DNA of 64,000 nucleotides from an uncultured Nitrospiraceae bacterium (GCA_963730935.1 CAVSTP010000004.1:864001-928000); one strand, 5' to 3'; positions 426 through 38,074 are shown, counted from the stretch's first letter. The notes: generated by a model from the sequence alone, not told the origin. Numbers and translations: made by a program.

Positions 426-463
426 AAACGGTGTCAGGAACCACTGTGCGGTGCGTGGCGGGA
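426..463 (+). repeat. Junction repeat copy (GGTGTCAGGAACC-type)
   Basis: AAACGGTGTCAGGAACCACTGTGCGGTGCGTGGCGGGA matches copies at 1874, 12272, 15443 and 29912. Confidence 0.85.
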
Positions 464-515
464 TTACAATGCTTAACCGACTGTCCAAATATTTAGTGGA
501 GCCGTACAGTCCTGT

Positions 516-968
516 TTAGTCGATGATATCGACCTTCTTCCCCTGTGCCTTTGCACGTGTGAGGCAATCGGTATCAGTCGTTGAACAACGCAGCGTGTCA
601 AGTTGATGTTCTTCGACAATCTCGACCTTCTTGCGTTGTGCCTTCGCCTGCTTCATACAGCCAGCATCGGTAATGAGACATTTCATGGTGTCATTAGTGG
701 CTGGCTTTTCAACCATCTCGACCTGTCTCCCCTCCTCTTTTGCTCGCCTGAGGCACTCTCGGTCCGTCGCGACACATTTGACCGTCTCTTCGGTCTTCTT
801 GATAGCCTTGTCAATGGATTGGTCGATGTTCTGATTTACTCGGTCTTGCGCTTTGCGCTTGGCGCTTTCGGTGGCTCGATTCATAAGACCATCGATATAT
901 CCTTGAGCTTGTACCTCGGCAACATTGAACAGCGTCAGCGCCACAATGCACCCGATGAAACGTGTCAT
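516..968 (-). CDS. Secreted protein with three CxxTDxxC repeats
   Basis: Signal peptide (MTRFIG...VQA), GAAGGGAGG RBS, three ~31-aa repeats C..TD..C...AK..G..V.I. Confidence 0.75.
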   Translation of the reverse strand: MTRFIGCIVALTLFNVAEVQAQGYIDGLMNRATESAKRKAQDRVNQNIDQSIDKAIKKTEETVKCVATDRECLRRAKEEGRQVEMVEKPATNDTMKCLITDAGCMKQAKAQRKKVEIVEEHQLDTLRCSTTDTDCLTRAKAQGKKVDIID

Positions 969-1072
969 GATAAGTGGCCCTCCCTTCAAACCAGCTAACC
1001 TACAAATAAGGATAGCAGATCGGGCAAACCCCGCTACCAAGCTGAAGGAAAAGGTTATTAATCGTCCCCCAT

Positions 1073-1198
1073 CCTAGCGGACGGATGGGACATAGACTGC
1101 TGATTACGAATCAGCAGGATCACAATCATGCCGCGCTATCGCATACTGGGGATTTTTTATTCCATTCTCTCGATGTCCGGCGAAACCCATGCCTTCTG
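1073..1198. repeat. ~125-bp direct repeat, copy 1 (contains an orphan 3' end of the DUF1254 gene)
   Basis: Aligns with 1945-2069; the minus strand reads QKAWVSPDIERME* versus QKAWVLPDIERME*. Confidence 0.9.
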
Positions 1199-1219
1199 CC
1201 TTGATCACTCGCGCGACAC

Positions 1220-1861
1220 GTGATAGAAGCTTTGCCCGCTGGTCGGAGTTCTAACAAGAGGCACTTCATTCACTTGAGTCGATCTGGGCCATGTACGCAT
1301 TTGTCCGCTGTGATCTTAGCCGTGGCCACGGCTCTCCTCGGACTTATGAATCCGTCCGCTGGCGCTGAAGAGTTGAGACTCGAATATTTGGCCCTGAGAG
1401 GAGGCTTTACCGGATATGTGATTGGACAATATCAACCAGACTATTTTAACCAAGCCGATGTTGCGTTAGCCGCGCGGCTTCCCTGGCAAAAGGAACTCGG
1501 GGCCGACTGGGTTCTCGGGACGCGCATTCTGGGCTCTGCCGGCGTGCTCATCGGGGCTCACGAAACGCCTGGGATCTTCACGCTGATACCGTTCTATGTG
1601 ATGTGCGGTCGAAAGGACGGACTGATTTCCATTGATATAGGTGGGGGCGGTGCCTTGGTCACCCAGTATAAGTTCCAGAATCAGAGCTTCGGCGGGCCGT
1701 TTCAGTTTGTGTGGACGTTCGGCGCGACCAGTCGTTTCGCCGGACCGTTCGGAGCAGGCTACCATTTTCAACATTTCTCCGACGCCGGAATGTACGGGAG
1801 TGACGCCCGCGGCGTCGATATGCATCTCTTTGAACTTACCTATTGGTTTGACACAAAGTGA
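1220..1861 (+). CDS. Acyloxyacyl hydrolase / PagL-like outer-membrane beta-barrel (start uncertain)
   Basis: GGPFQF and YHFQHFSDAG (PagL-like HxS motif), signal-like N-terminus, aromatic C-terminal strand. Confidence 0.7.
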   Translation: MIEALPAGRSSNKRHFIHLSRSGPCTHLSAVILAVATALLGLMNPSAGAEELRLEYLALRGGFTGYVIGQYQPDYFNQADVALAARLPWQKELGADWVLGTRILGSAGVLIGAHETPGIFTLIPFYVMCGRKDGLISIDIGGGGALVTQYKFQNQSFGGPFQFVWTFGATSRFAGPFGAGYHFQHFSDAGMYGSDARGVDMHLFELTYWFDTK

Positions 1862-1873
1862 CCTGGGGAAGAG

Positions 1874-1915
1874 AAAAGGTGTCCGAAACCCTATTGCGGC
1901 GCGTGGCGGGCCCGC
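1874..1915 (+). repeat. Junction repeat copy
   Basis: AAAAGGTGTCCGAAACCCTATTGCGGCGCGTGGCGGGCCCGC. Confidence 0.85.
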
Positions 1916-1944
1916 CTTAATCGGCTGTACCCGTTGAACGTCTT

Positions 1945-2069
1945 CCTTGCGGACGGACGGGACATAGCCGCTGATAACGAATGAGCGGAATCACAATCCT
2001 GTTTCGTCATCGCCTACTTGGGCTTTTTTATTCCATTCTCTCGATGTCCGGCAACACCCACGCCTTCTG
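1945..2069. repeat. ~125-bp direct repeat, copy 2 (3' end and downstream flank of the intact DUF1254 gene)
   Basis: Aligns with 1073-1198. Confidence 0.9.
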
Positions 2070-3461
2070 GAAAAGTGGCTTTTCCGGACCATAGAACCGG
2101 AAGAGAACTTCGAAGCCTCCGTCGGCGTTCGTCGGCACCCAGTTTGATTCCTTCCCATCTGGCGGTGTTGAGCCGAAAAAAAGATCGACCGAGCCGTCCG
2201 CGTTCTTCTGGAGTCCGGGTGTACTCGATGAGCGGCTGAACCAACGTGAATTGCGGATGAGCGTGTGCGTGGCGCCGTCGTACGCGGTGGCTGACCAGTA
2301 GAGGCTTACAGGGACGTCGGGAGGCACGGTGAGGCGATAGGCTCTGGCCCCCTCCAGGCGACGGCCAGACTTGTCCTTGATGGTCATAAGATAGAACTGT
2401 CCCGCACCAAGGTGCTTCGCACTGAAGTACGCCATGGCATACGTTACCGCACGCCCATCTATAGGGTAACTGTTTCGGTTCGCAAAAAAGTTTGGCATGC
2501 CTTCGACGACTTCCGGCGATGCAGGCAATGCCCAGTGATTGCCTGCATTGAATGGCGGAACGAAGGTCTTTTCATATTGCATCTCTATCAAGGCGCGGGC
2601 TTCATGCGCAGACGTTTCTAGCATCACCTTGGTGGTTGTGTCAGGATGAAACGGCTTGCCCTTCTCGATGCCAACCGACTTCAGCATGTCGATCATCGCC
2701 TTGTCGCGGGTCAGCCACGGCTCGGTTTGCACAAAGCGGTTGAGTGACTCGAAAAAGCGCGCGTCATACGGAATAGTCGCATCGAAGATGCGGCCAACCG
2801 CGTCAACGAATTTGGTTTGCTGACCGCTTTTTCCCCCACCCGCCGCCAGCGGATAGAACTTTACGCGCTTGCCGTACGCGACGGCTTTTGCGATATCGGC
2901 CTCGCTGCCGCTTTTCAGGTTTGACCGAAGGAGCGCATACCCTTGGTAGGTATCGGAACGAAGTGGGATGTAACCGGTGGGAACCTTCCCCTTATGTTCC
3001 GGCGGCAGGATTAAATACTTACCGCCCTTACCCTTATCCACACCGGCAGGGCCGACATCTTCCAGCGCGTTTTGCCATCCATCATCGATGCTACCGGTGA
3101 TTGAGCCCTCGTCGGACGGCGGAATCTCGAGCACGACAGGGCCATCCTTCGTGTTGTAGAACGGCATGAAGTATATGGTGTCGGGGTTGGGCGTGAGGGT
3201 CTGGTTCTTCCAGTCCACTGGCCTCGACCAATAGACGATCTGGTTAGGCCCTCCCTTGACGGCAACGAATGCCTGATACATCAGGTCGAAGTTGACCGCT
3301 GGCATGCCCCACATGACGGCTTCGACGGCCCTGCGCTTGAGGGTACGGCGGGCAAGCTCCTCAGCTGAGTAATCTTGGGCCTGCGTCATCAGCGTGTCTG
3401 TCATCACCAGAAACAGAGCCACGGCAACGAGAAAACAGGCCTGGTTTCTAAGACCTCCCAT
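2028..3461 (-). CDS. DUF1254/DUF1214 domain protein
   Basis: TPNPDTIY, GPAGVDKGKGGKYLILPP, WSATAYD, NADGSVDL and FRFYGPE motifs; AAGGAG RBS. Confidence 0.9.
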   Translation of the reverse strand: MGGLRNQACFLVAVALFLVMTDTLMTQAQDYSAEELARRTLKRRAVEAVMWGMPAVNFDLMYQAFVAVKGGPNQIVYWSRPVDWKNQTLTPNPDTIYFMPFYNTKDGPVVLEIPPSDEGSITGSIDDGWQNALEDVGPAGVDKGKGGKYLILPPEHKGKVPTGYIPLRSDTYQGYALLRSNLKSGSEADIAKAVAYGKRVKFYPLAAGGGKSGQQTKFVDAVGRIFDATIPYDARFFESLNRFVQTEPWLTRDKAMIDMLKSVGIEKGKPFHPDTTTKVMLETSAHEARALIEMQYEKTFVPPFNAGNHWALPASPEVVEGMPNFFANRNSYPIDGRAVTYAMAYFSAKHLGAGQFYLMTIKDKSGRRLEGARAYRLTVPPDVPVSLYWSATAYDGATHTLIRNSRWFSRSSSTPGLQKNADGSVDLFFGSTPPDGKESNWVPTNADGGFEVLFRFYGPEKPLFQKAWVLPDIERME

Positions 3462-3664
3462 AATTTCATGCTCCTTCATTGACTTCGATCCATTCCCTTC
3501 TGGCGAAGATGGCCTCGTGACTGATATCCCACAACGCTTAGTGTATTTTATCCACCTACCGGCCAGCCAGAAACTGGGAGAAGTAACAGGTTCAATGTGG
3601 ACACGATCCGGCGGAGTGGCTAGACTGATCAATCCCCTCATTCATTCAGCAAAAAGGAGTGACC

Positions 3665-4132
3665 ATGAGACTTCTTCATGAACTCCTCAACAGTCTCCTA
3701 TACGCAAGCCTAACGGTCACGGCCATATCCGGGGGGACAGCCCTAGCCGGTGGTGGGACTGTGGTGACAAAACCCAGCAACTATTCTGTCTCCGAAACAA
3801 TCGGCCGGATTGAGAGAGCGGTCACGGCGAAGGGGATGCAGATCTTTGCTCGGATTGATCACGGCGGAGAGGCGAAGAAAGCGGGGTTGGCCATGAGACC
3901 AACCGAGTTGCTCATCTTTGGCAACCCAAAGGGCGGGACCGCTCTCATGGTGGCCAAGCCTACAGCTGCGATTGACCTCCCCATGAAAGCCTTGGCATGG
4001 GAAGACGAGGATGGCAAAGTGTGGCTCACGTATAACTCGCCCGAGCTCCTGCACGAGCGACACGGTGTGCCGACGGACCTCACCTCGAAACTCGATTCGG
4101 TTGGCAAGCTGTTGGAAGCGACGGTGGAGTAG
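3665..4132 (+). CDS. DUF302 domain protein
   Basis: IFARIDH, LLIFGNPKGGT and DLPMKAL motifs; AAGGAG RBS. Confidence 0.9.
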   Translation: MRLLHELLNSLLYASLTVTAISGGTALAGGGTVVTKPSNYSVSETIGRIERAVTAKGMQIFARIDHGGEAKKAGLAMRPTELLIFGNPKGGTALMVAKPTAAIDLPMKALAWEDEDGKVWLTYNSPELLHERHGVPTDLTSKLDSVGKLLEATVE

Positions 4133-4162
4133 CTAGCGTAGCGGGGGCCGTTTATCGGTAGC

Positions 4163-4555
4163 CTAGGCGCGAACCAACATTCGACCATGCAAGAAGAGAA
4201 AGATGGAGAAGACCAAAGCAAGCAGTGCAAGCACTGTATTCGTGGCAGCAAGGACGAGTTTGCTTTGAAACAGGTTCGTGAATCGCGCCTGCAAATGTAA
4301 CCGCTGTAACCACTTGGGATACCCGTCAGTCTCGTGCCAGCCCCTATTCAATCCGAACAGCACAAGGATCGATAGAATGGAGAAATTCGCGGCGTACGCG
4401 ATGTTTTGCAGCAGCTTCCCCAGCTCATCTTGCGAGCTTGGAGGGGTATCCGGAATATCGAGGAGGGCCTTCAAGGAATCGCCAGAAAATGGCAGGCTGA
4501 TGACGAGCCAGACAAGCCCGACGAATGCCCAGAAAAACCATGAGGCTTTCTTCAT
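4163..4555 (-). CDS. Hypothetical membrane protein (3 TM)
   Basis: Three hydrophobic segments from MKKASWFF. Confidence 0.5.
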   Translation of the reverse strand: MKKASWFFWAFVGLVWLVISLPFSGDSLKALLDIPDTPPSSQDELGKLLQNIAYAANFSILSILVLFGLNRGWHETDGYPKWLQRLHLQARFTNLFQSKLVLAATNTVLALLALVFSIFLFLHGRMLVRA

Positions 4556-4612
4556 TTGGCAATCACAATAGAACAAGCCGGTGCGGAAATCAAAAACTGC
4601 GCCATCAATCTG

Positions 4613-4632
4613 TTCGCGGCGCGGGGCGGGAC
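4613..4632 (+). repeat. Junction repeat, right half
   Basis: TTCGCGGCGCGGGGCGGGAC. Confidence 0.6.
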
Positions 4633-4746
4633 AAGGCTCCCCTTGCAACCTGCCCGAAGCATAACGCAGTTCGGTAGCCCGCCCAACCAATAGCGTCTCC
4701 CTGCCCGCGGGAACGCAAATCATCCCTTACAAAGTCTTTGAACTTC

Positions 4747-5033
4747 CTAGCTGCCATTGAGATGAAGGAGAAGGCCAAGTAAGACGGCTTTCCCCTGAGC
4801 GCGTTCGGTTTCAGCCTTCGCCGTGCCTTTTGCGGGTTCTACTCGGCGCTCGTCTTGTTGCCCTTCACGTCCTCGACTGCGTCTTTCGTCTGTCCTTTCC
4901 CTTTCTCGACGAGAGACTTCGTTTGTCCTTTCATTTTCTCCATCGCGACGGAGGTGTCGCCTGCGTGACCCGCACCGACGAATCCCAAGATTGAAAGTAT
5001 CGCGATGCCTGCAGCAAGTGGAAGTGTTCTCAT
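4747..5033 (-). pseudogene. CsbD-like secreted repeat protein, probably frameshifted
   Basis: Signal peptide and KGQTK repeats end at a TAG (4839); the AKGTAKAETERAQGK repeat continues in another frame. Confidence 0.5.
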
Positions 5034-5229
5034 GATCCAATCTCCTTCATGGTACGAGGTGATAGATCCTTGACACGTGATCCTTGCTGATATTCTTAGC
5101 CTCTTTGCGCGACGCGGATAGGTGTGCGGTGAACAGCGGCGGCGTATCTTCAATCCACCATGATACCCGGCGAGAGATCACGCCGCGGCGAAGAGACACG
5201 CTAACGAGATACCTATGGTGAGGCCGATG

Positions 5230-5475
5230 CTAGCCCCTTCGCCTGCCTTTCGTCCTCGGCCTGCTCAGATCGTGCTGACGTGGGAAGCATAGCCTGAGAT
5301 TGTGGGTCCCCTTGCTCATCTCGACTCGCCCCGCTTGATTCAAGCGAACGAGTTCGATGAGGGTATCGTGCCAGGTAAATTCGCTGCAGCTGAACACCAA
5401 CTCTTCAAGCTCACATTCAGGAGAGCGGCGTAACTGTTTGATGACTCGCTTGGTAATGGCGGTGTAGGGTGACAT
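5230..5475 (-). CDS. Small winged-helix-like protein, paralog of 18269..18478
   Basis: Shared IT..I...LR..P.C..E.LV....EF.W....E..RLN..G.V pattern; AAAGGAG RBS. Confidence 0.65.
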   Translation of the reverse strand: MSPYTAITKRVIKQLRRSPECELEELVFSCSEFTWHDTLIELVRLNQAGRVEMSKGTHNLRLCFPRQHDLSRPRTKGRRRG

Positions 5476-6026
5476 CAAAATGTCTCCTTTCAGATGATCC
5501 GACCGTCCCGATCCACAGTGTCGATCTGCTGAGACGTCTTCAACCATAGCGTGACCTCAAGCAAGGAGTCTGCTGAGCGACATCCTTGCCGGTAAGGCCG
5601 CCATCTGGATGGCTGAATTTCCATCTCCAGCCTCACCTACCACTTCGATAAGACGAAATCGTCAAAGAATTCCCGTAGAGTCTCACGAAACGGAACAAAA
5701 TCATCGACCTCCAGAATACTCAGTGATTCAGCTGGGAAGGTTACCGACATCGTGTTCAACTGTTCAAAGGCCACATTCCACCTGCATTGATTCTCTGCCT
5801 CTAAGACCGCCCTGTCTGTTCAAAAGATGACACTGGGGCATTCCCGAGCCGCATAATGGCCAATCATCGCTTTAGAGTTGTGGGCAGGAGCGGACTGAGC
5901 CCGAATATCGCACGCTGCTCATCAAAGCCGGACTTCAGATGACCAAGGCCGTGCCCACAGAGCGGTGAGCATCGTGGAGGCGATGGTTGCCTGATCACCG
6001 GTTCCACTCAGGTGCAGCAGATTGAG

Positions 6027-6053
6027 CACTTCACCACGCGCGGCGGGCCGGCC
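6027..6053 (+). repeat. Junction repeat, right half
   Basis: CACTTCACCACGCGCGGCGGGCCGGCC. Confidence 0.6.
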
Positions 6054-6098
6054 TTCCGCATCGACCTCCCCATTCACACTGCTTATCCATGCTTGCCT

Positions 6099-6127
6099 TA
6101 GACCTGCCCGCATAAGAAACGTAAAAT
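6099..6127 (+). promoter_or_regulatory. Sigma70-like promoter TAGACC-N17-TAAAAT
   Basis: Exact 17-nt spacing; same module recurs about 8 times. Confidence 0.6.
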
Positions 6128-6162
6128 GGCTCGACTCCTCGTTCGACACCGCGAGGCGTTAC

Positions 6163-6558
6163 CTGATACCCGTTGTTGTTGGCGTTCTCCTTGCTGCTGG
6201 AATCGCAGCACTTGCCAAGTTCACACGCTTCGATGAAGATCGCAGCTTCTACCCCACTGTTCTGGTGATCATCGCATCATACTACCTGCTATCCGCAGTT
6301 CTAGGCGGGTCAGGTCACGCCTTGGTCTGGGAGCTGGTTATCGCCGTCGCATTTTCAACAGCAGCTATTATCGGAGCAGTCTTTTCACCCACGCTGGTAG
6401 GGATTGGCATTCTTACACATGGTCTATCTGATCTTGTGCATGACGTGATCATTCAGAACCCTGGCGTCCCGACCTGGTGACCAAGCTTTTGTGGAAGCCT
6501 TGATGCATTGTTGGGGCTGTGGGTGATCAGCATTACCCGTTCCCGACGAATTTCGTGA
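6163..6558 (+). pseudogene. Small integral membrane protein interrupted by an in-frame TGA
   Basis: NPGVPTW*PSFCGSLDALLGLWV continues hydrophobically past the TGA at 6478-6480; no canonical start codon. Confidence 0.6.
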
Positions 6559-6659
6559 TGCGGGACTGGCTAGTCTACCCGCTGATATGCAATCAGCGCG
6601 TTCAGATGAAGGATGTGTGTGTGCTTCTGTGTTAAGATGACGCACCTCGGCTTGAACCA

Positions 6660-7106
6660 ATGGAGAATCGTTCTATGAACGGCGATAAGACGATCGCCTC
6701 CGATCTCTTGCAGCGGCATTTCCAGACACTCGTGAATGACAACCTGCGATGGCAGATGCTCATCGACGATAATATTGTATGGGAACTCGCTTACGCGGCG
6801 GCCATAGGCCACCCAACGAGGCTCTCGGGGCGGGAAGAAGTCGTCCGTCACGTCACCTGGTTCTTGGGAGCGGTGAAGGATTTTCGCTTCTTTGATCTTA
6901 AGGTGTTTCCCTTGGCTGATCCTGAAGGAGCCGTAGGTCAAGTCATGGCGGAGGGGACTATTCAGTCCACTGGCCGAATGTATCAGCAGGAATATGTGCT
7001 GTTCTTGCGTGCGACCGGTGGCAAGATTATTTCCCTGCGAGAGTATTTTGATCCTACGCGCGCAGCGAAGGCCCTCAATACGCCCATTCTCGGTCTGGAA
7101 GCCTAG
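6660..7106 (+). CDS. SnoaL/NTF2-like (PhzA/B-like) protein
   Basis: GRMYQQEY and GKIISLREYFDP motifs. Confidence 0.85.
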   Translation: MENRSMNGDKTIASDLLQRHFQTLVNDNLRWQMLIDDNIVWELAYAAAIGHPTRLSGREEVVRHVTWFLGAVKDFRFFDLKVFPLADPEGAVGQVMAEGTIQSTGRMYQQEYVLFLRATGGKIISLREYFDPTRAAKALNTPILGLEA

Positions 7107-7912
7107 TATATAGAAGCTGTCCTGCTCAGAAAGTCGCGTACCAATCGGGCGACCTCGAACGGCTTTTCAATCGCCGCGAGTTGACTGGCCTCGTCAAGAA
7201 TTTTGAACTCTGCGCCGGGAATTTGTGCGGCGATAAAATCTGCTTGCGCCGGCGTGACGGCAGGATCCTGCCGCCCGGCAAGGACTAGCGTCCGAGTCCT
7301 AATCCTATGAAGCTCACTGCTCACATCTGATCGATTGAAGGCGGCAAGCGCCGCGTTAAACATGCCGTTGCCGTCTGGTATGCTCACGAGCTGGTTTCTA
7401 AATTTTGCGATGAGGTCAGGTCTGGATTGATACGTCGAGGGCGCAAACAACAGTTTCATTGCTGGGTCGACAATGTCCTGGCGATGTCCGTCCCGAAACA
7501 TTTTCCAGAGGTGGAGGGTCGATGCTTTCATTGTTGAGGGATCGGGTCGTGCGCTCGTTGCCATGAGCACGAGCGAATCAAAGGCGTCGGGATGTGCAAG
7601 CGCCACGCGCATACCGATCATTCCGCCGATCCCATTTCCGAACCATGCGACCTTTCCTAGCCCCAGCGCTTGCAACAACCCATAATAATCTTCCGCCATC
7701 GCTTCGAGTGTCATGGCTTCCCGATATCCGCTCAGACCATGGCCATGGAGATCGACCGTCATAAGGCGGGCATCTCTCGCGATTTCTGTCAACACCTCGG
7801 CGAATGCGTCTGGTCCCCACATCAGCGGATGGGCGAACACGATCGTCGGAGTGTCCTGGTCTCCAGACTCTCGATAATGCATTCCAATCCCGTTGATCTG
7901 CACAACCGGCAT
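7103..7912 (-). CDS. Alpha/beta fold hydrolase
   Basis: DLHGHGLS, GNGIGGM nucleophile elbow (Ser absent), LAGRQD. Confidence 0.85.
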   Translation of the reverse strand: MPVVQINGIGMHYRESGDQDTPTIVFAHPLMWGPDAFAEVLTEIARDARLMTVDLHGHGLSGYREAMTLEAMAEDYYGLLQALGLGKVAWFGNGIGGMIGMRVALAHPDAFDSLVLMATSARPDPSTMKASTLHLWKMFRDGHRQDIVDPAMKLLFAPSTYQSRPDLIAKFRNQLVSIPDGNGMFNAALAAFNRSDVSSELHRIRTRTLVLAGRQDPAVTPAQADFIAAQIPGAEFKILDEASQLAAIEKPFEVARLVRDFLSRTASIY

Positions 7913-8041
7913 ACGCTTCTCCGAGGTGGGAGCCAGCAAGAGCTGTTACGGTGACTCGCACACGACACTACTGGGAAGGCGGCGCTCGATTCAAGTCATC
8001 GGAGCTCTCTCCCCGTCCCTCGACCTTCTCTCCGATCGCCA

Positions 8042-8070
8042 TAGACCCGTTGGGCTCTTGAAAGTAGAAT
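8042..8070 (+). promoter_or_regulatory. Sigma70-like promoter TAGACC-N17-TAGAAT
   Basis: CATAGACCCGTTGGGCTCTTGAAAGTAGAAT upstream of 8144. Confidence 0.65.
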
Positions 8071-8143
8071 GGGCTTGCGGTTTCACTCATAAGGCCGAAG
8101 CCATGGCCATGACGTGCAGTACATTCAGCAAAGGAGAGCGTCA

Positions 8144-9145
8144 ATGATCTGTTGGTTGACCCATGGTGTGATCCTCGCTGTTCTGATGTCCATCTATGGA
8201 TGTGTATCATCGCCCACGATCAATTGGACAAACGAGAAAATTGGTTTTACTCGGGCACCTCAACTTGGCGGGACGGATTCTCTTTGGATCATGAACGGCG
8301 ATGGATCCGGCCAGTCGCAGCTTGATTTAGGTGCGGACGGGAATAGCTCCCTGACGTGGTCGCCTGATGGCAACTCCATTGCGTTTGAATCCGTCCGAGA
8401 TGGCCACATTGAGCTCTACACCGCGCGGATTATCAGCAACGGCAACGACACATATTCTGCTCAGGAGATTCAACGAAGGACTACCGCTCCTGCGGACCAT
8501 TCATTTCCAGCATGGTCACCTGATTGCGCATGGCTTGCGTTTTCGTCCAACAGAGTCAACCAGAATTCCTACAACATTTATCAACTCCATCTGAGCGACG
8601 ACACCGTGACCCCCATTACGAGCGGAAACTACCAGGATTTGTCCCCTTCATGGTCTCCTGATGGGTCCAAAATCGCCTTCACGCGTCACGTGGGCAATGC
8701 GTCACGAGAGATTTATGTTCACGTGATGAGCTCTGGGCAGGATATTCGACTGACGAATAACAGTGTGAATGATACTGATCCCTCGTGGTCGCCATCCGGC
8801 CGTATTATTTTTGCACGGCATTCCGAGGATGGCAGTCGTGCGGCTCTCTTTGAAATGGACGCTGTCGACGCGAATGGAGACGGCAATGGAGACCATCTCG
8901 CCCCAATTACTACCCCAAATGAACATGAATATGACCAGAAGCCGGAGTATTTTCGGAGTGGAAAAGCCATCGTATTCTTTCGAAGTCAGGAGGCTGGTGG
9001 GGGAGGACCTGGGGATGTCTATAAACTCCTCATCCAGGACGGGACAGTCATGGAACCGCTTCTGAATCTCACCCACACCAATCCCCAGCACGAACATGGC
9101 GCGACTTGGAAGCGAAATGGAGTCTGTGTCAGAAAAGCGAAGTAG
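8144..9145 (+). CDS. TolB-like beta-propeller lipoprotein (PD40 repeats)
   Basis: Repeated WSPDG..IAF units; lipobox-like IYGC; AAGGAG RBS. Confidence 0.85.
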   Translation: MICWLTHGVILAVLMSIYGCVSSPTINWTNEKIGFTRAPQLGGTDSLWIMNGDGSGQSQLDLGADGNSSLTWSPDGNSIAFESVRDGHIELYTARIISNGNDTYSAQEIQRRTTAPADHSFPAWSPDCAWLAFSSNRVNQNSYNIYQLHLSDDTVTPITSGNYQDLSPSWSPDGSKIAFTRHVGNASREIYVHVMSSGQDIRLTNNSVNDTDPSWSPSGRIIFARHSEDGSRAALFEMDAVDANGDGNGDHLAPITTPNEHEYDQKPEYFRSGKAIVFFRSQEAGGGGPGDVYKLLIQDGTVMEPLLNLTHTNPQHEHGATWKRNGVCVRKAK

Positions 9146-9161
9146 CAACAGCTACTGCACG

Positions 9162-9195
9162 AATGGGACATTCTGTATTTACCGGCGCGTGGCGG
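9162..9195 (+). repeat. Junction repeat, GGGACATTC-type left half
   Basis: AATGGGACATTCTGTATTTACCGGCGCGTGGCGG. Confidence 0.65.
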
Positions 9196-9325: not shown

Positions 9326-10312
9326 TTGGCAAAACAATTGTTGCTCAGATCAGTGATAGTTCTGGGGTTGTGGCCGGGTCTTGGCCTAGCGGCAGACCAC
9401 GATCTGACGCCTCGCGAGATCTACGAGCTCGACTCGCCAGCTGTTGTGATGATCATCGGATATTCCAACAGCGGCCAGCGAGGTAACGGCGGCACCGGCT
9501 CCATTATTCAACAAGATGGACTCGTATTGACGAACGCTCACGTCGTCATTGAGGACCAAACAGGCAAACCCTATCCCCGCTTGACCATTTATCTGAAGCC
9601 CGAACGCGTGAGCGGTGACCCCAAGGCCGATTTGTCGCGGAGCGCCAAGGGTCGTGTCGTCGCCTTCTCACAACCATTGGACCTGGCTTTGCTCAAGCTC
9701 GATGGGCCGCCTGGACCCTTTCCCGTCCTCGAACTGGATGATTCCGACCGGATCGAGATCGGTGACCGCGTGGTGGCGATCGGGCATCCCGAGCAGGGCG
9801 GGCTTTGGACCCTGACAACCGGTACCATCAGCGCGCAGTTTGAGAACTTTAATGCTACGAAGGGCAAGTCGGTGTTTCAGACGGAAACGGGGCTCAACCG
9901 CGGCAACTCCGGTGGACCGCTGCTCGACACGTACGGCCGCATGGTCGGGATCAATACGGCAATCGCCCGCCTCTCATCGGATGGACTGCCGATCACGAGT
10001 ATTAGCTTCTCGTTGAAATCCAATGTAGCCAAGCGCTGGTTGCGTGATCAAGGTGTGTCGTTTCAGGAGATGCCGGCATCGGACAGGTCAACGCCGGACA
10101 AATCGGCAAGTCGTTCTACCCCTCTATCCGAGGAGCACACGACGAAGTCTGAGAATCTGCCTGCCGCCCCCACGGTCGCTTCCCCATCCTCGCCGCTCTC
10201 CGCGTCCTCTCGGCCATACAATCTGGATCGCCTTATCAGTGAACGAAGCCGAGCCGAGGCCGATCTCGAGGATATGATCAAAGAAATGCGAGGCAAATTT
10301 AGCGGGCGGTGA
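9326..10312 (+). CDS. Trypsin-like S1C serine protease (no PDZ domain)
   Basis: TNAHVV, DLALL and GNSGGP catalytic triad motifs; signal peptide. Confidence 0.9.
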   Translation: MAKQLLLRSVIVLGLWPGLGLAADHDLTPREIYELDSPAVVMIIGYSNSGQRGNGGTGSIIQQDGLVLTNAHVVIEDQTGKPYPRLTIYLKPERVSGDPKADLSRSAKGRVVAFSQPLDLALLKLDGPPGPFPVLELDDSDRIEIGDRVVAIGHPEQGGLWTLTTGTISAQFENFNATKGKSVFQTETGLNRGNSGGPLLDTYGRMVGINTAIARLSSDGLPITSISFSLKSNVAKRWLRDQGVSFQEMPASDRSTPDKSASRSTPLSEEHTTKSENLPAAPTVASPSSPLSASSRPYNLDRLISERSRAEADLEDMIKEMRGKFSGR

Positions 10313-11960: not shown

Positions 11961-12271
11961 TCCAGCCGAAGCTCCAAGGTATTGATTACTATACTCGCCA
12001 AGCTGGTGCCAACAACAACCAGACAAGCCGGTGTAATATAATTAACCGGCTGACGAAGTCTGGGGCTGTGCAGAGTGGAGGACGCATGCGCGCATTCTGG
12101 CGCCTGCTGATTGCATTGTGCGCACTGACGTTGGGCGGTGCGGCGCATCCGTGTGGATGCGGAAACGGCAAAATTATCAAAGGCCTAGACCTGCCATAGG
12201 CTCAGCCTTCTCTGTTCAGGGGCGCCGTGTACGAAGGGACAGACTACTTTTCTGGGCCTTCGAGACTGAAG

Positions 12272-12308
12272 AAAAGCGTCAGGAACCATTTCGCGGCGGC
12301 GGCGTGGC
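12272..12308 (+). repeat. Junction repeat copy
   Basis: AAAAGCGTCAGGAACCATTTCGCGGCGGCGGCGTGGC. Confidence 0.8.
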
Positions 12309-12348
12309 ATCTTTCAATGGATGGATGATTCGCTCATACTCCTTCGTC

Positions 12349-14680: not shown

Positions 14681-14960
14681 GATGACGATCAGCTGCGGCT
14701 AAAAGAATTAGACCAGAAAATGGCAGTTATTCACCGGATTTCATTGCTTCCTCGTTGAACCGGTTCTCTGAGTGGGCGACCTTGAAGACACACAAACCGA
14801 TGCTGTGTGGATGTAATTCGATTCACCAGAAGTATTCCGCGGCAGACCGGCGCCTTACCGTCCATCTTCCAACCGCTCTTCCATCGCCTCTGGAGTGATG
14901 GATACGTCTCAGACTTTGCAGTAGACTGAGGTGGAGGAGAATTCATCAGGAGGTACATCC

Positions 14961-15434
14961 ATGCACAAGCGAATCATCGGCCAAAAGCAGGAAAGGTCCG
15001 CATCGTCTGAGCAGGGTTGGTTGAACGTGGAAGGACTTGTCGAGGTGGAGATCACCTCAGAGGACGCCACGCATCCCATCGAATCAGCATTACGACCAGG
15101 CGAAACGTCGGGATGGCGGGCCGCAGAGGCTGGAGCACAGACGATCCGGCTACTTTTCAACAATCCGCAGCGGCTCCAACGGATCTGGATGAATTTTGTG
15201 GAACCCGAAACTGCACGCACTCAGGAGTACGTCCTGCGTTGGTCGCCGGACAGCGGACAGTCCTTCCGCGAAATTGTCCGGCAGCAATGGAACTTCAGTC
15301 CCCCTAGCACTACGAACGAGATGGAAGATCATCGTGTGGAGCTCCCGGCGGTCACGATGCTCGAGTTGCACATCATTCCGGACATCAGCGGTGGCAATGC
15401 CGTCGCATCCTTAGCGCAACTACGGCTGGCCTAA
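14961..15434 (+). CDS. Galactose-binding-like / carbohydrate-binding fold protein
   Basis: EITSED..HPIESAL...GWRAA..G.Q.IRL.F and RQQWNFSP motifs; AGGAGG RBS. Confidence 0.7.
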   Translation: MHKRIIGQKQERSASSEQGWLNVEGLVEVEITSEDATHPIESALRPGETSGWRAAEAGAQTIRLLFNNPQRLQRIWMNFVEPETARTQEYVLRWSPDSGQSFREIVRQQWNFSPPSTTNEMEDHRVELPAVTMLELHIIPDISGGNAVASLAQLRLA

Positions 15435-15442
15435 GGCATACC

Positions 15443-15487
15443 AAAGGTGTCGGGAACCATTCGCGGCGCGCGGCGGGCCGGCGCGCG
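15443..15487 (+). repeat. Junction repeat copy (closest to consensus)
   Basis: AAAGGTGTCGGGAACCATTCGCGGCGCGCGGCGGGCCGGCGCGCG. Confidence 0.9.
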
Positions 15488-16798: not shown

Positions 16799-16841
16799 AA
16801 TTCGATTCACCAGCACCATTTCGCGGCGCACGGCGGGCTGG
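16799..16841 (+). repeat. Junction repeat variant
   Basis: AATTCGATTCACCAGCACCATTTCGCGGCGCACGGCGGGCTGG; the first 15 nt are shared with 14815. Confidence 0.75.
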
Positions 16842-16850
16842 GACGAGCGG

Positions 16851-28430: not shown

Positions 28431-29891
28431 ATGCAAAAGACACGCATTATCTGCACGATCGGCCCGGCTACGGAATCATACGAGATGTTGCAGAAGATGT
28501 ACGAGGCCGGGATGAGTATCGCGCGACTGAACATGTCCCACGGCGACCACGACTCGCACGCCAAGGTCATCCAACACATTAAGACGCTCAACAAGAAGGT
28601 CAAGTTTCCCATCCCTATCCTCCTGGATACGCAGGGCCCGTCGATCCGCACCGGGAACCTTTCCAACGAGCTCGATCTGCGGCAGGGCGCCATCGTCTCC
28701 GTCACCACGCGCGGGCCGATGGACGTTGAAGAGAGCTCCATCCACATTGACTATGAGGACTTGCTTGAGCAGGTCAACGTCGGGGACAAGATCACTGTGG
28801 ATAACGGATTGATCAATTTGGAGGTGCTGGAGAAGGAAGAGCGCCATATGCGGTGCCGTGTCTTGGACGGTGGGCTCTTGAAGAGTAAGCGCCACGTCAA
28901 TCTCCCGGGTATCCGTGTCAATCTGCCGGCGATCACGCAAAAGGACACCAAGGATATTCTGTTCGGCCTGGAACGGGATGTGGACTTCATCGCGCTTTCG
29001 TTCGTCCGTGAAGCCGCGGATATTCAGCAGCTCAAGGGACTCATGGGTGAAAAGGTCGGAAGGGTGAAGATTGTCGCAAAGATCGAGGACCAGGAAGGCG
29101 TGCGAAACCTGGAGGAGATCATCAGGGAATCGGATGGCATTATGGTCGCGCGTGGCGATCTGGGGGTGGAGATCAACATCGAGGATTTGCCGAATGTCCA
29201 GCGCACGATCGTACAGCGTTGTGCCGAGCACGGGAAACGTGTGATCGTTGCCACCCATCTCCTCGAATCCATGATCCACAATCCGCACCCTACCCGCGCC
29301 GAAGTCACGGACGTCGCCAACGCGATCTATGAAGAAGCCGATGCCGTCATGCTGTCCGGAGAAACCACGGTTGGGAAGTATCCGGTGAAATGTGTCGAAT
29401 ACCTGCGCAAGATCGCGCTGAAATCCGAGACGATTCCCGGATTGCGGTTTGCGAAACAATTGCGCGATACGGGCAATAAACAACAATTGGCGGCGGCGGC
29501 CGTTCAGCTCGCCGAGGGGGTCAACGCCAAGGGCATCGTCGTGATCACCAGACGGGGACTCATGGCCGATCTTGTCGCAAACTGCCGTCCGTTCTCGACC
29601 AACATCTATGCCTTTACCAACATGAGCCAACCGCGACGGACCATGATGCTCAACCGTGGTGTCTTTCCGTTCAAGATTGATTTCAGTTCGGACCCTGAAA
29701 AGACGCTGCAAACGGCGTTCCGGATCTTGAAGGAGCGAGAACAGTTTCAGGTTGGGGACAAGGTCGTGATCATCTCGGACGTGCTGGCTCAGCAACGTGT
29801 CGACTCGATTCAGATTCGTGATGTCCCCACGGATGACCTCTCGCCCGAAGCTTCTTCCGCAACGGGTGTAGTCTCCCCATCGATGGGGTAG
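28431..29891 (+). CDS. pyk: Pyruvate kinase
   Basis: TRIICTIGPA, RLNMSHG, DTQGP, MVARGDLGVE and AVMLSGET motifs. Confidence 0.97.
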   Translation: MQKTRIICTIGPATESYEMLQKMYEAGMSIARLNMSHGDHDSHAKVIQHIKTLNKKVKFPIPILLDTQGPSIRTGNLSNELDLRQGAIVSVTTRGPMDVEESSIHIDYEDLLEQVNVGDKITVDNGLINLEVLEKEERHMRCRVLDGGLLKSKRHVNLPGIRVNLPAITQKDTKDILFGLERDVDFIALSFVREAADIQQLKGLMGEKVGRVKIVAKIEDQEGVRNLEEIIRESDGIMVARGDLGVEINIEDLPNVQRTIVQRCAEHGKRVIVATHLLESMIHNPHPTRAEVTDVANAIYEEADAVMLSGETTVGKYPVKCVEYLRKIALKSETIPGLRFAKQLRDTGNKQQLAAAAVQLAEGVNAKGIVVITRRGLMADLVANCRPFSTNIYAFTNMSQPRRTMMLNRGVFPFKIDFSSDPEKTLQTAFRILKEREQFQVGDKVVIISDVLAQQRVDSIQIRDVPTDDLSPEASSATGVVSPSMG

Positions 29892-29911
29892 CCTCTGCGA
29901 AACAGAACCGC

Positions 29912-29947
29912 TGTCAGGGACCATCTGGCCGCGCGTGGCGGGCCTGC
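29912..29947 (+). repeat. Junction repeat copy
   Basis: TGTCAGGGACCATCTGGCCGCGCGTGGCGGGCCTGC. Confidence 0.8.
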
Positions 29948-30045
29948 CGCGGAGAACTTGAACACCTCTACCCTGGAGCCGGCCCGGCGCGACGGTTTTC
30001 CCCACCGGTCATGCCGTTCGTTATTCCTCCGGCTTTCAAACCACA

Positions 30046-30084
30046 TAGACCCGGCCCCTCTGAAAAAGTACAATGTCCCCGTTT
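30046..30084 (+). promoter_or_regulatory. TAGACC-N17-TACAAT promoter overlapping an inverted GGGGACATT element
   Basis: TAGACCCGGCCCCTCTGAAAAAGTACAATGTCCCCGTTT. Confidence 0.6.
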
Positions 30085-30192
30085 GTTTCCAGTAGGCTGC
30101 TGCGCGAGGAAGAAGCACGGGAAGTGCTGACTTTGACGCGAACCGATGATTGCACCAAGTCGCCGACAGTGCCCATACCTAGGAGGGATCGC

Positions 30193-33794: not shown

Positions 33795-33825
33795 GCGTCG
33801 GTTCCTTGGCAGACGAGGACCCTCC

Positions 33826-33880
33826 ATGCTGGAACTGGGACCGACCTGCGAACACTGCAACAAGGCGTTGCCGAGCCTGA
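33826..33880 (+). pseudogene. 5' fragment of a DUF1272-like gene
   Basis: GAGGA RBS plus MLELGPTCEHCNKALP, after which similarity stops. Confidence 0.6.
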
Positions 33881-33945
33881 AAGGCGGTAGCAAACCGCCA
33901 GGCTATTCGGAATACCAGGAGAGGCAAGATTGTGAGGCAGCACAT

Positions 33946-34212: not shown

Positions 34213-34647
34213 CATTCAGAATTCGGCCACTCCCAAACCAGAAACAGTGCGTATCTCCGGAGCAGGAAACCGGCACCACACTGAAGCAATAATCGGAGTT
34301 TAGTCTGCCGCGCAGAGCTATCGCTGTACGGCTAGGGAAGAGTAGGAGACCTTGTCGCCCTCCTGCTTTGGGAGGAGGACGTCAGCTGACCAAATGACGA
34401 CAGGCTATTTTCCAATTACTCCCTGGCATTACCACCACTCACACCTTTTTCTTCGGATGATTGCCTATCCGTTCGCCCTGCGAGCCGCCAATCTCACACG
34501 GAACAGGTAAAGTTAGGACCCCGCTTTACGCCGCGAGTGATCAAGAAGTGCCGTTGATCATTCATTCACTAGGGGTCTCACGAGATGTCACAGTCTCAGG
34601 CAGACTGTACATTCCCCGCCCAGACTGCATCATATTGTGAGGTCTTC

Positions 34648-35235: not shown

Positions 35236-35280
35236 GCGCCGCCGTTTTATCCCTTGGCATCTCGAGGTGCAGCAACCTCA

Positions 35281-35309
35281 TAGACCCGCCAACTTCGAAC
35301 ACGTAGAAT
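35281..35309 (+). promoter_or_regulatory. Sigma70-like promoter TAGACC-N17-TAGAAT
   Basis: TAGACCCGCCAACTTCGAACACGTAGAAT. Confidence 0.65.
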
Positions 35310-35339
35310 GCGACTCTTTCTCGTTCATCGAGCGCATCC

Positions 35340-36296: not shown

Positions 36297-36349
36297 TTAG
36301 AGCCTCGGGCGGGGGAGGCGAATCAGAGTGAATGGCTGAACGGCTACTT

Positions 36350-36530
36350 TCACGGCGCTTTTGATGGCATCGACGGGATCAACCTGGTGATTCGTCGCAT
36401 AGGCAGCGGAGGAGCGTCAAATCCGTATTTCTCCAGGAGTCTTAAGATGCGGGGCGTCATCAGGAAATCGGAAAGCTGTTTCTGCCACAGGGCGTAACGA
36501 GGCTCGACAGGTCGACACGACTGCTTGCGA
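36350..36530 (-). pseudogene. 3' remnant of a ModA-like gene
   Basis: SDFLMTPRILRLLEKYGFD aligns with SDFLMTPRIQKLLAKYGFD of 53019..53858. Confidence 0.8.
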
Positions 36531-36806
36531 AAACTGAATCGGGATGTCTCTTGCAAGCGGAATTTCATCACTCATGAATACGCCGATCAAGGGTTAAGCA
36601 CACGAAAAATTCACAAGCGCAGTGGAGCAAGAGACGGGCTGGATTTTCTCGATGCACCGGACTGGGAAGATCCCTGGAGCGAATATCACTTTCTTGTGCA
36701 CGGCGGCAACGACTGTTACAGTGGGCTCAAGGATCCTTCTGGAGCATGTGCGCGGAAGCTTCCATACTGATCCACTCCACCGCAACCATGGAAAGGAACG
36801 CTGGCG

Positions 36807-37232
36807 ATGAACAAGACCGTCTCAAATGGAAAAGTCATTTCCTTGGAGTACACGCTCAAGCTGGAAGACGGCGAAGTCGTGGACACAAATGTCGGTGGAA
36901 ATCCCCTGACCTATACTCAAGGCAACAATCAGATTATCCGCGGCGTCGAGTCAGCGGTTGAGGGGATGGAAGTCGGACAAGCCAAACAGGCCGTCGTGCC
37001 TCCTACGGAAGGCTACGGAGATCCAGACCCTGGCGCGTTCCACGAAGTGCCAAAAGAGAACCTTCCTCAAGAAATTCAAGTGGGCACTCAACTCCATGGG
37101 AAAGACGCCAGCGGCCGCGAGATCCGACCAATTGTGTCAGCCATCAAGGACGACACCGTCCTTTTGGATTTCAACCATCCCCTTGCCGGCAAGACACTGT
37201 ACTTCGACTTGAAGGTAGTGAACATCAGTTAA
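36807..37232 (+). CDS. slyD: FKBP-type peptidyl-prolyl isomerase (SlyD-like, no His-rich tail)
   Basis: YTL..EDGEVVDT, GYG and DFNHPLAGKTL.F motifs. Confidence 0.88.
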   Translation: MNKTVSNGKVISLEYTLKLEDGEVVDTNVGGNPLTYTQGNNQIIRGVESAVEGMEVGQAKQAVVPPTEGYGDPDPGAFHEVPKENLPQEIQVGTQLHGKDASGREIRPIVSAIKDDTVLLDFNHPLAGKTLYFDLKVVNIS

Positions 37233-37247
37233 CTACTCCCTCGTCGC

Positions 37248-37295
37248 TCTTGTCTATCCGGCGCAGCCAGGTTGCGTCATGCTGGATAGACAAGA
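37248..37295. terminator. Long hairpin downstream of slyD
   Basis: TCTTGTCTATCCGGC...GCTGGATAGACAAGA, 15-bp stem with one G-U pair. Confidence 0.6.
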
Positions 37296-37581
37296 CACTG
37301 GCGGTGGCGTTCCGCCAAAGGACCGCTCCATCAGTACGCAGCCCTCCCCACATCTGTAAGACAAAGGAAGGGACTAATTTTTAGGCTGGCCTGCGGGTCG
37401 CCCGCACGTCTCGCATCCCCGAATTTGTAGGACTTTTCTGTAGGCAAACACTTCTGTGCTCGATTCAATTTGTATGGTTTAGCCCTGGCCGTGAGCGGAA
37501 TTGTTCGGAATTGGCTGCGCGGCTTCGGGTGGCCAGTCACGTAAACCAAGGAACAATGGTCGATAGAAAAATCGCTGGCTT

Positions 37582-37597
37582 CGGTATGCACTTTGCT
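37582..37597 (+). promoter_or_regulatory. Sigma54 promoter
   Basis: CGGTATGCACTTTGCT (GG-N10-GC) upstream of a PilZ gene. Confidence 0.6.
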
Positions 37598-37644
37598 CGT
37601 CGTTAGCAGGCAGGTGACTTGGCCTCTTTCCAAGAAGGTGACCA

Positions 37645-37935
37645 ATGAGACCTCTTACTGCTGATCTATGTGAGAAACGATGGATTCCCCGACACCAGAT
37701 GATTGTCCCAATTCATTGCCATCTGTCCCGAAACGATGAATCCGGCTCCGGATGGGTGAGAGACTTTTCGAGCATTGGCGCCAGTGTGATCAGCAACCTC
37801 CCACTGACGGCTGGTGATGAATTGACACTCACGTTGCCTAACGATGGCCGCCCTGAAATGACCATTGCCGCCACGGTCCGGTGGAATCACGGTCGGCTTC
37901 TTGGGGTTGAATTTAAGCACACGCCGAGGAACTAG
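37645..37935 (+). CDS. PilZ domain protein
   Basis: RWIPR, DFSSIG and VRW...GVEF motifs. Confidence 0.8.
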   Translation: MRPLTADLCEKRWIPRHQMIVPIHCHLSRNDESGSGWVRDFSSIGASVISNLPLTAGDELTLTLPNDGRPEMTIAATVRWNHGRLLGVEFKHTPRN

Positions 37936-38053
37936 CCGTCCGCAGGCACAGACCCGCGGTACTTCCGAAAATTCCCACCTTGTAGGCGATCGCTGATAGA
38001 CCGCACCTTACAAGCTTTCACGTGATAAGCTTCAGCAAATAACGTACAACGAC

Positions 38054-38074
38054 TTCGCGGCGCCGGGCGGGCGG
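38054..38074 (+). repeat. Junction repeat, right half
   Basis: TTCGCGGCGCCGGGCGGGCGG. Confidence 0.6.

Follow-up and report, generated by a model that had tools for sequence, protein, structure and literature searches.

A strand-polar junction repeat bounds exchangeable gene modules at one conserved chromosomal locus in Nitrospiraceae

The window analysed here, a 64-kb stretch of DNA from the genome of an uncultured Nitrospiraceae bacterium (G000:C4:864,001–928,000; genome completeness 99.9%), contains a short junction repeat that recurs between unrelated genes. It is only the thin right end of a larger array, which reaches 65 kb further left and spans about 103 kb (C4:798,871–902,079). A profile of the repeat was built from six window copies and rebuilt from the first genome-wide matches. 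In the whole genome it gave 38 matches at E ≤ 0.01, of which 34 lie inside C4:798,871–893,947, all of them (34/34) on the plus strand; the four outlying matches are at C4:4,539(+), 273,641(−), 535,792(−), and 536,412(−). Counting weaker copies, there are 46–47 junctions, with the end of the array at about C4:902,079, and 46 of 46 are on the plus strand. The preliminary description, made from the window sequence, had proposed that the copies are clustered and of one polarity, and had considered that the motif might instead be spread evenly over both strands or follow replichore skew; the genome-wide scan agrees with the proposal and with neither alternative. The array sits where the plus strand is C-rich. 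From these data we conclude that the repeat is not a genome-wide skewed word. The G+C content of the array is 54.5%, vs. 58.1% and 56.5% in the two flanks.

Within the window, six strong copies (E ≤ 1e-6), starting at 422, 1869, 12267, 15438, 16813, and 29900, and two right-half copies were found, all eight on the plus strand, as had been claimed. The first, a full copy (422–465; E 1.6e-9), begins 6 nucleotides (nt) past the stop codon of a short-chain dehydrogenase open reading frame (ORF), of which the window holds the 3′ part (9–416, plus strand, start left of the window; Pfam adh_short; also present in G013, at 86.8%). The second full copy (1869–1918; E 3.3e-11) begins 8 nt past the stop of an ORF for a PagL-like lipid A deacylase (1220–1861, plus strand; Pfam PF09411). 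At 4613–4634 there is only the core, that is, the right half of the repeat (E 0.007), and the homology with the relative G006 stops 8 nt before it. The copy at 12267–12314 (E 7.6e-9) has a 23-mer like a repetitive extragenic palindromic (REP) sequence ahead of it, at window position 12230 (C4:876,230). The full copy at 15438–15483 (E 9.9e-10) begins 4 nt past the stop of a cassette ORF with no Pfam family (14931–15434, plus strand); this block is also present in G006 (90%) and G020 (78%), and the homology stops within the repeat. The copy at 16813–16842 (E 1.1e-6) is again core only, and that at 29900–29947 (E 7.9e-9) begins 9 nt past the stop of a pyruvate kinase gene. Finally, a weak core copy at 38052–38079 (E 0.08), from the right-half repeat family, was taken as the right limit of the array.

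Of the 16 positions originally listed for the repeat, these eight were supported by the profile scan. Seven others gave marginal matches that are individually chance-like, at 9183 (E 0.16), 14009 (0.46), 27249 (0.67), 60722 (0.73), 19697 (0.92), 18483 (0.95), and 6037 (3.9), and the copy listed at 14815 gave no match in the scan of the window; positions 14812–14843 resemble the left flank of the copy listed at 16799, at 84% identity. The 40-mer given as consensus had no match at up to three mismatches as typed, yet it serves reasonably well as one: for its left 16-mer, seven matches at up to three mismatches were found vs. 0.57 expected (0 of 100 shuffles reached seven), and the right half was recovered as a six-copy family in a repeat search of the window. 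As to the statement that copies lie just past stop codons, four of them start 4–9 nt after a plus-strand stop by crude ORF calls. The thinning toward the right was upheld, with 1.1 copies per 10 kb in C4:870–905 kb vs. 4.4–7.2 per 10 kb leftward. Serial addition of segments at one fixed target was not demonstrated. A gradient of junction quality along the array was looked for and none was present (rho −0.02); only the density of copies falls rightward.

The invariant core of a junction is about 25 nt long, roughly CATTTCGCGGCGCGTGGCGGGCCGG. Between unrelated copies, identity is 0.8–0.93 over the central ~14 positions and about 0.3 within 10 nt on either side. The left half is variable and often REP-like, and some junctions carry a 23-nt REP (GAAAAGGGGACAGGCTACTTTTC) ahead of it. 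Past the core, junctions of the left third have a CT-rich leader and then a promoter-like TAGACC-N17/18-TAGAAT. Of the 22 genomic copies of a 26-nt leader motif, 20 are in C4:800,951–837,504, all of these on the plus strand, and a promoter scan showed four TAGACC-type sites in 10 kb of the left array. The median distance from stop codon to repeat is 33 nt. The gene upstream of the junction is on the plus strand in 33 cases and on the minus strand in 13, while the downstream gene is on the plus strand in 23 and on the minus strand in 23; these statistics cover 46 junctions and 45 inter-junction segments and, like all our counts of junction geometry and of the strands of neighbouring genes, rest on crude ORF calls. 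Single-ORF segments make up 23 of the 45 (15 on the plus strand and eight on the minus strand).

That the strand of the repeat is constant whatever the strand of the genes argues against a purely transcriptional signal, and an ops-like antitermination signal would fit poorly with the minus-strand cassette genes. A minus-strand reading frame across the core (MNQIPATRREMVPDTF...) was also considered and set aside on the argument that, with differing upstream cassettes, such a frame could not be conserved past the junction. No Rfam family was found at the junctions.

The cargo between junctions, previously described as unrelated and in both orientations, is indeed heterogeneous and consists mostly of small genes, with eight minus-strand single-gene cassettes. 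By Pfam, the array genes include TIR (ThsB-like), caspase-like, HIT, CARDB, and DUF4136 genes and two HNH genes; several methyltransferases, GYD and PilZ domain genes, and response regulators; short-chain dehydrogenase, SnoaL, cupin, ankyrin, SNase, patatin, PagL, and Xre/MbcA antitoxin genes; and an adenosine deaminase and a second pyruvate kinase. The only recombinase among them is one Y1 HUH gene. The pyruvate kinase gene of the window (28431–29891, plus strand; Pfam PK) is full-length, and the other one of the genome is at C3:346,826–347,827; the cassette of the array copy is common to G005, G006, G041, and G046, with homology ending at the junction repeat. Between the conserved left flank and the first junction, a TIR (ThsB-like) gene and, after it, one for a caspase-like peptidase C14 (L005:11816–13155; C4:795,816–797,155) form a pair that looks defence-like.

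The same locus is occupied by such arrays in related genomes. The left flank consists of B12-binding radical-SAM genes and is syntenic in all five same-genus genomes tested (G001, G005, G009, G041, and G046), in which parts of the right flank are also present, and the stretch between the flanks measures from 20 kb (G005) to 108 kb (G000). In the relatives, junctions are found in this stretch, on the strand that matches the orientation of the flanks. All junctions were on the same strand in G046 (13/13), G005 (12/12), G023 (13/13), G020 (8/8), G014 (7/7), G003 (7/7), G022 (7/7), and G009 (6/6), as were 17 of the 18 in G006, where there is one weak minus match. The 25-mer core (up to three mismatches) was detected in 17 of 24 other same-genus species and in none of 16 genomes of three other families.

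A screen of 301 genomes of the class, in which single matches were near the level of the reversed-pattern control, placed same-strand arrays in at least three Nitrospiraceae genera. Outside the genus, multi-copy same-strand clusters were found in G240, G146, G294, and G316 (genus g11) and in G186 (g7). G240:C5 has 35 plus-strand matches in 40 kb, plus one weak overlapping minus match; G146:C54 has 33 minus-strand matches in 41 kb; and G294 has 11 matches, its array starting after the B12/radical-SAM genes. A junction 20-mer is unchanged across genera. Many junctions of g11 (L118–L123; G240:C5 and G146:C54) end in ...GGCGGGGA(T/G)CTGGTTCAT and not in ...GGGCCGGC plus leader; this ending creates an inverted 6-mer, GAACCA/TGGTTC, and a minus-strand ATG-led frame across the core, neither of which is supported as a general feature.

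In public metagenome contigs, at least 147 stretches carry the exact 20-mer, a count that is a lower bound. In 134 array-bearing loci from soil and sediment contigs, two or more profile matches were present in 51, at a median spacing of 856 nt, and in 50 of these 51 they were on the same strand; the sole discordant locus, L171 (2921–9990), has one plus-strand junction at 2921 and four minus-strand junctions at 3284–8769. Viral, plasmid, and phage collections gave no match to the junction module. The repeat is strand-polar and confined to one conserved locus.

To compare the content of the arrays, 14 of them were aligned by blastn, keeping same-orientation blocks of at least 250 nt. The 217 blocks obtained are typically of one-gene size. 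Their ends fall within 60 nt of a junction in 26.4% of 602 cases, vs. 6.4% ± 1.0% at random (the maximum of 500 simulations was 9.8%), and more often on the right side (38%) than on the left (15%). In a comparison of 140 junctions for which 400 nt of flank were available on either side, the upstream cassette alone was common to 11 pairs and the downstream one alone to 10, and no pair had both in common; in the pairwise junction alignments identity enters the core from one side and ends there. Single-gene blocks are therefore common to several species and stand beside different neighbours, with homology broken inside the core, which is the behaviour foreseen for a junction between exchangeable modules. 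The contrary outcome considered beforehand, a syntenic cargo with breakpoints unrelated to the repeat, was not observed: the cargo is non-syntenic, and the breakpoints map into the repeat. As to whether they map to one nucleotide, the ends fall in the ~25-nt core, and shared rare variants in the 21 pairs available suggest more than one switch point.

The order of the blocks differs from pair to pair. G000 and G006 have 14 blocks in common (rho 0.62), with one of 13 neighbour pairs kept; G006 and G046 show no correlation of order (rho 0.00); and the six blocks common to G000 and G023 are collinear, with other cassettes between them in G000. For most cassettes, the divergence between species is similar to that of the flanks (72–90% vs. 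81–87% identity), and the arrays are therefore old and for the most part vertical in descent, with local gain, loss, and re-ordering.

Variation of the same kind was seen among strains that occur together. Twenty soil and sediment runs, from 11 studies, contain 21–66% of the sampled words of a 10-kb array piece, and contigs of four of them (X1–X4) were compared with the array stretch L008; segments of L008 that these runs do not cover were given no weight. These contigs are Logan assemblies (k = 31) of mixed populations, in which strains need not descend from one another, and their loose ends were assigned to G000 junctions by eye. The reference point is L008:5548, where the core of junction C4:849,539 begins. 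One X3 contig connects the end of the SnoaL cassette, namely the 30 nt that precede junction C4:843,863, to L008:5548. A second runs through the core to L008:5572 and then continues with the 27 nt that follow junction C4:828,670 in G000, and a third has the end of an NmrA-like cassette (C4:828,484) joined to L008:8032. In another X3 joint, L008:8404 goes back to 5552 with 28 other letters between, and an X4 contig skips L008:856–5548 and has instead 32 other letters, including a REP-like stretch. Together, the metagenome joints bound the exchange to about 25 nt, L008:5548–5572. In two of them, the partner junctions share 12–15 nt of uninterrupted identity, and one joint is seemingly in the left arm of the junction, both by-eye readings. 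A shared stretch of 12–15 nt is short for RecA-dependent exchange. As judged from these sequence comparisons, the junctions bound gene modules that differ between species and between co-occurring strains, and the exchange point maps inside the ~25-nt core.

Because the same modules are found in other arrangements in related species, the array looks like an integron-style platform for gene swapping. We read the repeat as the junction site of a large sedentary chromosomal cassette array beside the B12-binding radical-SAM genes. A cassette has a single gene or a small number of genes, most of them in the direction of the array, and ends with the variable left part, often a REP-like 23-mer, followed by the invariant core; many cassettes of the left third start with a shared CT-rich leader that carries the promoter-like TAGACC-N17-TAGAAT. 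Gain, loss, and re-ordering of cassettes go through recombination with its exchange point in the core. This would be the work of a dedicated sequence-specific recombinase acting in trans, neither an integron integrase nor encoded at the edge of the array, which would read the core as a linear, polar sequence. The asymmetric sites of some tyrosine recombinases are read similarly, the shufflon being a case for comparison. We give roughly even chances to the view that a dedicated trans-acting recombinase exchanges the cassettes of this array at a short polar site. The broader claim, of a new gene-capture platform in which as many as about fifty cassettes are recombined at an unstructured, polar 25-nt site by a dedicated non-integron enzyme encoded away from the array, is put forward tentatively, at somewhat below even odds.

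Several observations weigh against a dedicated recombinase. No tyrosine recombinase is encoded within 60 kb of the G000 array or on the contigs that carry the arrays of G240 and G146, and none of the serine recombinases of G000 adjoins the array. When the 134 metagenome loci (351 kb) were searched by tblastn with a REP-associated tyrosine transposase (RAYT), one IntI, two serine recombinases, two Xer-like proteins, and one IS3 transposase as queries, the only match was a single RAYT. Neither dyad symmetry nor a fold is supported for the site. The switch point seems to differ between pairs, as judged by shared rare variants in the 21 informative pairs: in one pair the variant at core position +8 is linked to the downstream side, and in another those at +13 to +16 are linked to the upstream side. 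Cassette order is only partly scrambled in the comparisons of G000 with G023 and with G006. Junctions of the left array share about 130–150 nt (REP, core, leader, and promoter), which is ample for homologous recombination. As to the data, k = 31 Logan contigs could in principle be mis-joined at repeats, and the ORF calls are crude.

The main rival explanation is homologous recombination at a conserved intergenic repeat, either the core alone or the 130–150-nt module, that has some other primary or selfish role. The turnover of cassettes would then be a by-product of RecA-type or short-homology recombination, within the cell or after DNA uptake, and no dedicated enzyme would be involved. The failure of every search to reveal a linked recombinase agrees with this, as do the long, highly similar junction modules of the left third and the apparent switch points, which vary within the core and agree with homologous exchange at least as well as with a fixed cut. 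That cassettes are about as diverged as the flanks likewise fits old vertical inheritance with local rearrangement. The sharp conservation of ~25 nt amid unrelated flanks is harder to reconcile with it, given that concerted evolution would be expected to homogenise whole units, and the same core is present across genera. Some joints are between junctions with only the 12–15 nt of uninterrupted identity mentioned above, and fifty direct repeats at ~1-kb spacing should collapse unless the array is rebuilt. Homologous recombination also leaves unexplained how unrelated genes each gained a junction. We consider this explanation a real contender, less probable than a dedicated recombinase. A precedent would be the minimal mobile elements and intergenic mosaic repeat arrays of Neisseria, in which conserved flanking genes or short repeat arrays allow cassette-like genes to be swapped by homologous recombination, with no element-encoded enzyme. 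We know of no polar array of fifty modules with a 25-nt core among them.

Only one candidate enzyme was found within the array. The profile-scan check proposed for a linked transposase or recombinase revealed no linked tyrosine or serine recombinase, and only the Y1 HUH gene lies in the array. This RAYT-like protein (225 amino acids; C4:809,465–810,139, minus strand, 54 kb left of the window) is the only PF01797 match in G000 (52 bits vs. a cut-off of 23). Its best solved relative is the Escherichia coli TnpA-REP (PDB 4ER8), with which the catalytic motifs align, the HxH and the Y of RYILRNPV being conserved; the NCBIfam model REP_Tyr_transpos (NF047646) gives 72.9 bits, below its cut-off of 80. 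Inverted 23-nt REPs flank the gene (L006:5448, plus strand, and 6152, minus strand), as they do at the homologue loci L038, L039, and L040. Of the 26 REP copies in G000, 18 are inside the array, and nine of the 14 plus-strand REPs start 25–43 nt before a junction match. A second REP cluster in the same genome (C4:1,464,301–1,506,534) has six copies on both strands and no junction cores.

A single-strand mechanism can be built on this protein, in which the Y1 HUH enzyme would cut and join the top strand beside the REP-like left half by the chemistry of IS200/IS605 or of REP/RAYT systems. Top-strand cutting would explain the strand polarity, and the left half of the junction matches the REP at 17 of 23 positions by eye. 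Orthologues with 71% identity occupy the same variable locus in G001 and G046, RAYT fragments are found in the arrays of G000, G006, G009, G041, and G046, always antiparallel to the junctions, and the discordant metagenome locus L171 carries a 70%-identical RAYT (9331–9990, plus strand) beside four junctions. Arrays without the gene nevertheless exist: there is no detectable homologue in G240 (95% complete; 35 junctions in 40 kb) and none in G003 (99% complete; seven junctions), G146 shows nothing but a pseudogene, which is on a different contig, G294 shows a weak fragment outside its array, and L171 is the one positive among the 134 metagenome array loci. Distant RAYT loci were tried as possible further arrays and rejected, a junction match being present in one of 80, and five long loci being without cassette arrays. 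A left-half hairpin as substrate of a Y1-type enzyme was ruled out as well. The 30 nt before the core have a mean minimum free energy of −1.4 kcal/mol as DNA (z near 0), no better than the controls (−1.6 and −1.8), and a hairpin foot before the core is paired in 34 of 115 copies.

The earlier guess of an HUH/RAYT-like enzyme therefore stands as far as the presence of the sole PF01797 gene inside the array is concerned, and fails on the arrays without a homologue and on the lack of a supported Y1-type hairpin. Since such arrays exist, we regard the RAYT-like gene as a lead and as a resident of the array, not as the enzyme; as the general enzyme it is a candidate only, and probably not the right one, and the mechanism built on it is improbable. 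The array resembles REP sequences and bacterial interspersed mosaic elements with their RAYT in having a catalytically intact-looking Y1 HUH gene with inverted 23-nt REPs, a REP-like left half, and an extragenic position, often after stop codons; unlike the junctions, REPs are dispersed, palindromic, and in both orientations, while the junctions are at one locus, strictly polar, and non-palindromic, mark exchangeable gene modules, and occur in arrays without RAYT. With IS200/IS605 elements, the array has in common a Y1 enzyme, and a strand-specific chemistry would give polarity. In contrast to those elements, no subterminal hairpins were found at the junctions, the modules are unrelated genes and not copies of one element, one Y1 gene would serve about 46 modules in G000 and none is present in G240, and the enzyme is absent from many arrays.

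Other locations for an enzyme were also considered and rejected. No recombinase is conserved at the left edge of the array among G000, G046, G001, and G294: the genes there are the TIR and caspase-like genes in G000, an inserted IS3-type element in G046, a protein kinase in G001, and DUF2130 and OLD-TOPRIM genes in G294. Nor was a cassette gene common to all arrays found, as the most widely shared family (214 amino acids, no Pfam) is in seven of the 14 arrays and absent from G000. No recombinase was found within the stretches scanned around the four outlying copies of the repeat. A large serine recombinase (602-amino-acid frame; C4:12,813–13,250) lies 8 kb from the isolated copy at C4:4,539.

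Sites of the XerC/D type were examined by comparison with pdif modules. On Acinetobacter plasmids, these are bounded by 28-bp dif-like XerC/D sites with two arms, in alternating orientation. As in the array, short sites bound gene modules in varied contexts, and the enzyme is encoded elsewhere in the host. The differences are that the core is unlike the dif-like site of G000, that its copies are all direct, and that the array is chromosomal and has about fifty modules. The generic dif pattern, a 28-bp site with two inverted arms and a 6-bp spacer, has a single match in G000, at C4:619,438 on the minus strand, with no likeness to the core by eye. This match lies near the plateau of the cumulative GC skew.

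That the array is an atypical integron, a giant cluster of attC sites lacking an integrase (CALIN) whose short attC-like sites are served in trans by the sporadic IntI of the genus, is very improbable. An IntI above the TIGR02249 cut-off is present in three of 33 genomes of the genus (G046:C1:2,599,407–2,600,342; G005:C21:220,478–221,407; and G010:C252), with partial or interrupted copies in G041 and G002, and the architecture is integron-like, with polar sites after ORF ends, single-gene cassettes, and a fixed locus. In G000, the best match to IntI has 86.4 bits vs. a cut-off of 265. In the complete genome G046, IntI is at 2.60 Mb and the array at 0.02–0.06 Mb, 2.5 Mb apart. No junction matches were found at the IntI loci (L012–L014), and no repeat families beside the IntI genes inspected; the lack of an attC-like family beside those of G046 and G005 makes them look In0-like. 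An IntI acting in trans was accordingly rejected, being missing from G000 and unlinked to the arrays elsewhere.

The site itself gave a similar result. The attC boxes follow the pattern RYYYAAC ... GTTRRRY. Such spans number five per strand in the array vs. two to six in four control regions of the same size, and none of the 46 junctions is inside one. The fold of the 58-nt site is unremarkable (mean z −0.22 for the top strand, 0.05 for the bottom strand, and −0.06 for the control). The bracketing of the site by AGGAAC...GTTCCT, or by GAACCA...TGGTTC in g11 (consensus forms), had hinted at a dyad or a minimal attC; this was ruled out over 176 copies, in which the longest run of complementarity between the arms is 4.24 vs. 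4.21 when permuted and 4.19 in the reversed control. The original statement that the repeat is non-palindromic and has no attC boxes was thus upheld by fold, arm-complementarity, and box-pattern tests, and, with no fold, dyad, attC boxes, or likeness to dif, the site is best taken as a linear, polar sequence.

In the tests made, then, the array lacks the integrase, the boxes, and the fold of an integron, and shares with it the one-directional single-ORF architecture. The resemblance to chromosomal integrons and CALINs extends to the long one-directional array at a fixed chromosomal locus; to cassettes that mostly hold a single gene and have the site directly behind the ORF, some ORFs, the minority, being reversed while the direction of the site is kept; to a heterogeneous set of small accessory genes, among them a toxin-antitoxin antitoxin and defence-like genes; to a G+C content below that of the flanks; and to cassettes common to species in which they have other neighbours. 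What differs is the absence of IntI from the genome as well as from the array, the ~25-nt linear site without R and L boxes, fold, or dyad, the exchange in the core and not at G/TT, and the many cassettes with a promoter-like leader of their own.

To our knowledge, no platform other than the integron is well understood among those by which bacterial chromosomes stockpile and re-order single genes, and all search tools in use are built on its sites and integrase. The array has the logic of an integron without the defining parts, so these tools miss it. In the part of the IntegronFinder 2.0 paper available to us, only two CALINs are reported in the phylum, both in Ca. N. inopinata (PMC9024848). 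At the level of abstracts and partial text, no description of an array of this kind was found in the literature.

The locus is conserved across genera of the main nitrite oxidisers in soils, sediments, and treatment plants. If the proposal of a dedicated system is true, the integron principle would have been invented twice, independently, and the second version, widespread among nitrite oxidisers of soil and sediment, would shuffle their defence, stress, and metabolic genes. A dedicated enzyme, if it exists, would define a new system of site-specific recombination whose site is short and linear, a potential tool; it would also provide a handle on the exchange of accessory genes in uncultivable nitrifiers and a second system in which the origin of cassettes could be studied. 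Should plain homologous recombination be responsible, an integron-like architecture would still have been kept for a long time without any integrase.

Some minor observations were made in and around the array. Left of the window, a ~120-nt palindromic repeat (L005:9232–9351; C4:793,232–793,351) has no Rfam match, and dozens of copies with 75–88% identity are present across the genomes G001, G005, G009, G041, and G046. On the plus strand of the window, a promoter-like motif CATAGACC-N17-ACGTAGAATG, of the type found in the junction leaders further left, occurs at 6097, 8040, 30044, 33764, 35279, and 56115. The third of these (30044–30086; TAGACC-N17-TACAAT) is about 100 nt after the junction at 29900 and is of the type seen in the left-array junction modules. 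Beside two minus-strand ORFs, the window also contains a 100-nt direct repeat, at 1099–1198 and 1970–2069, the two copies being 84% identical.

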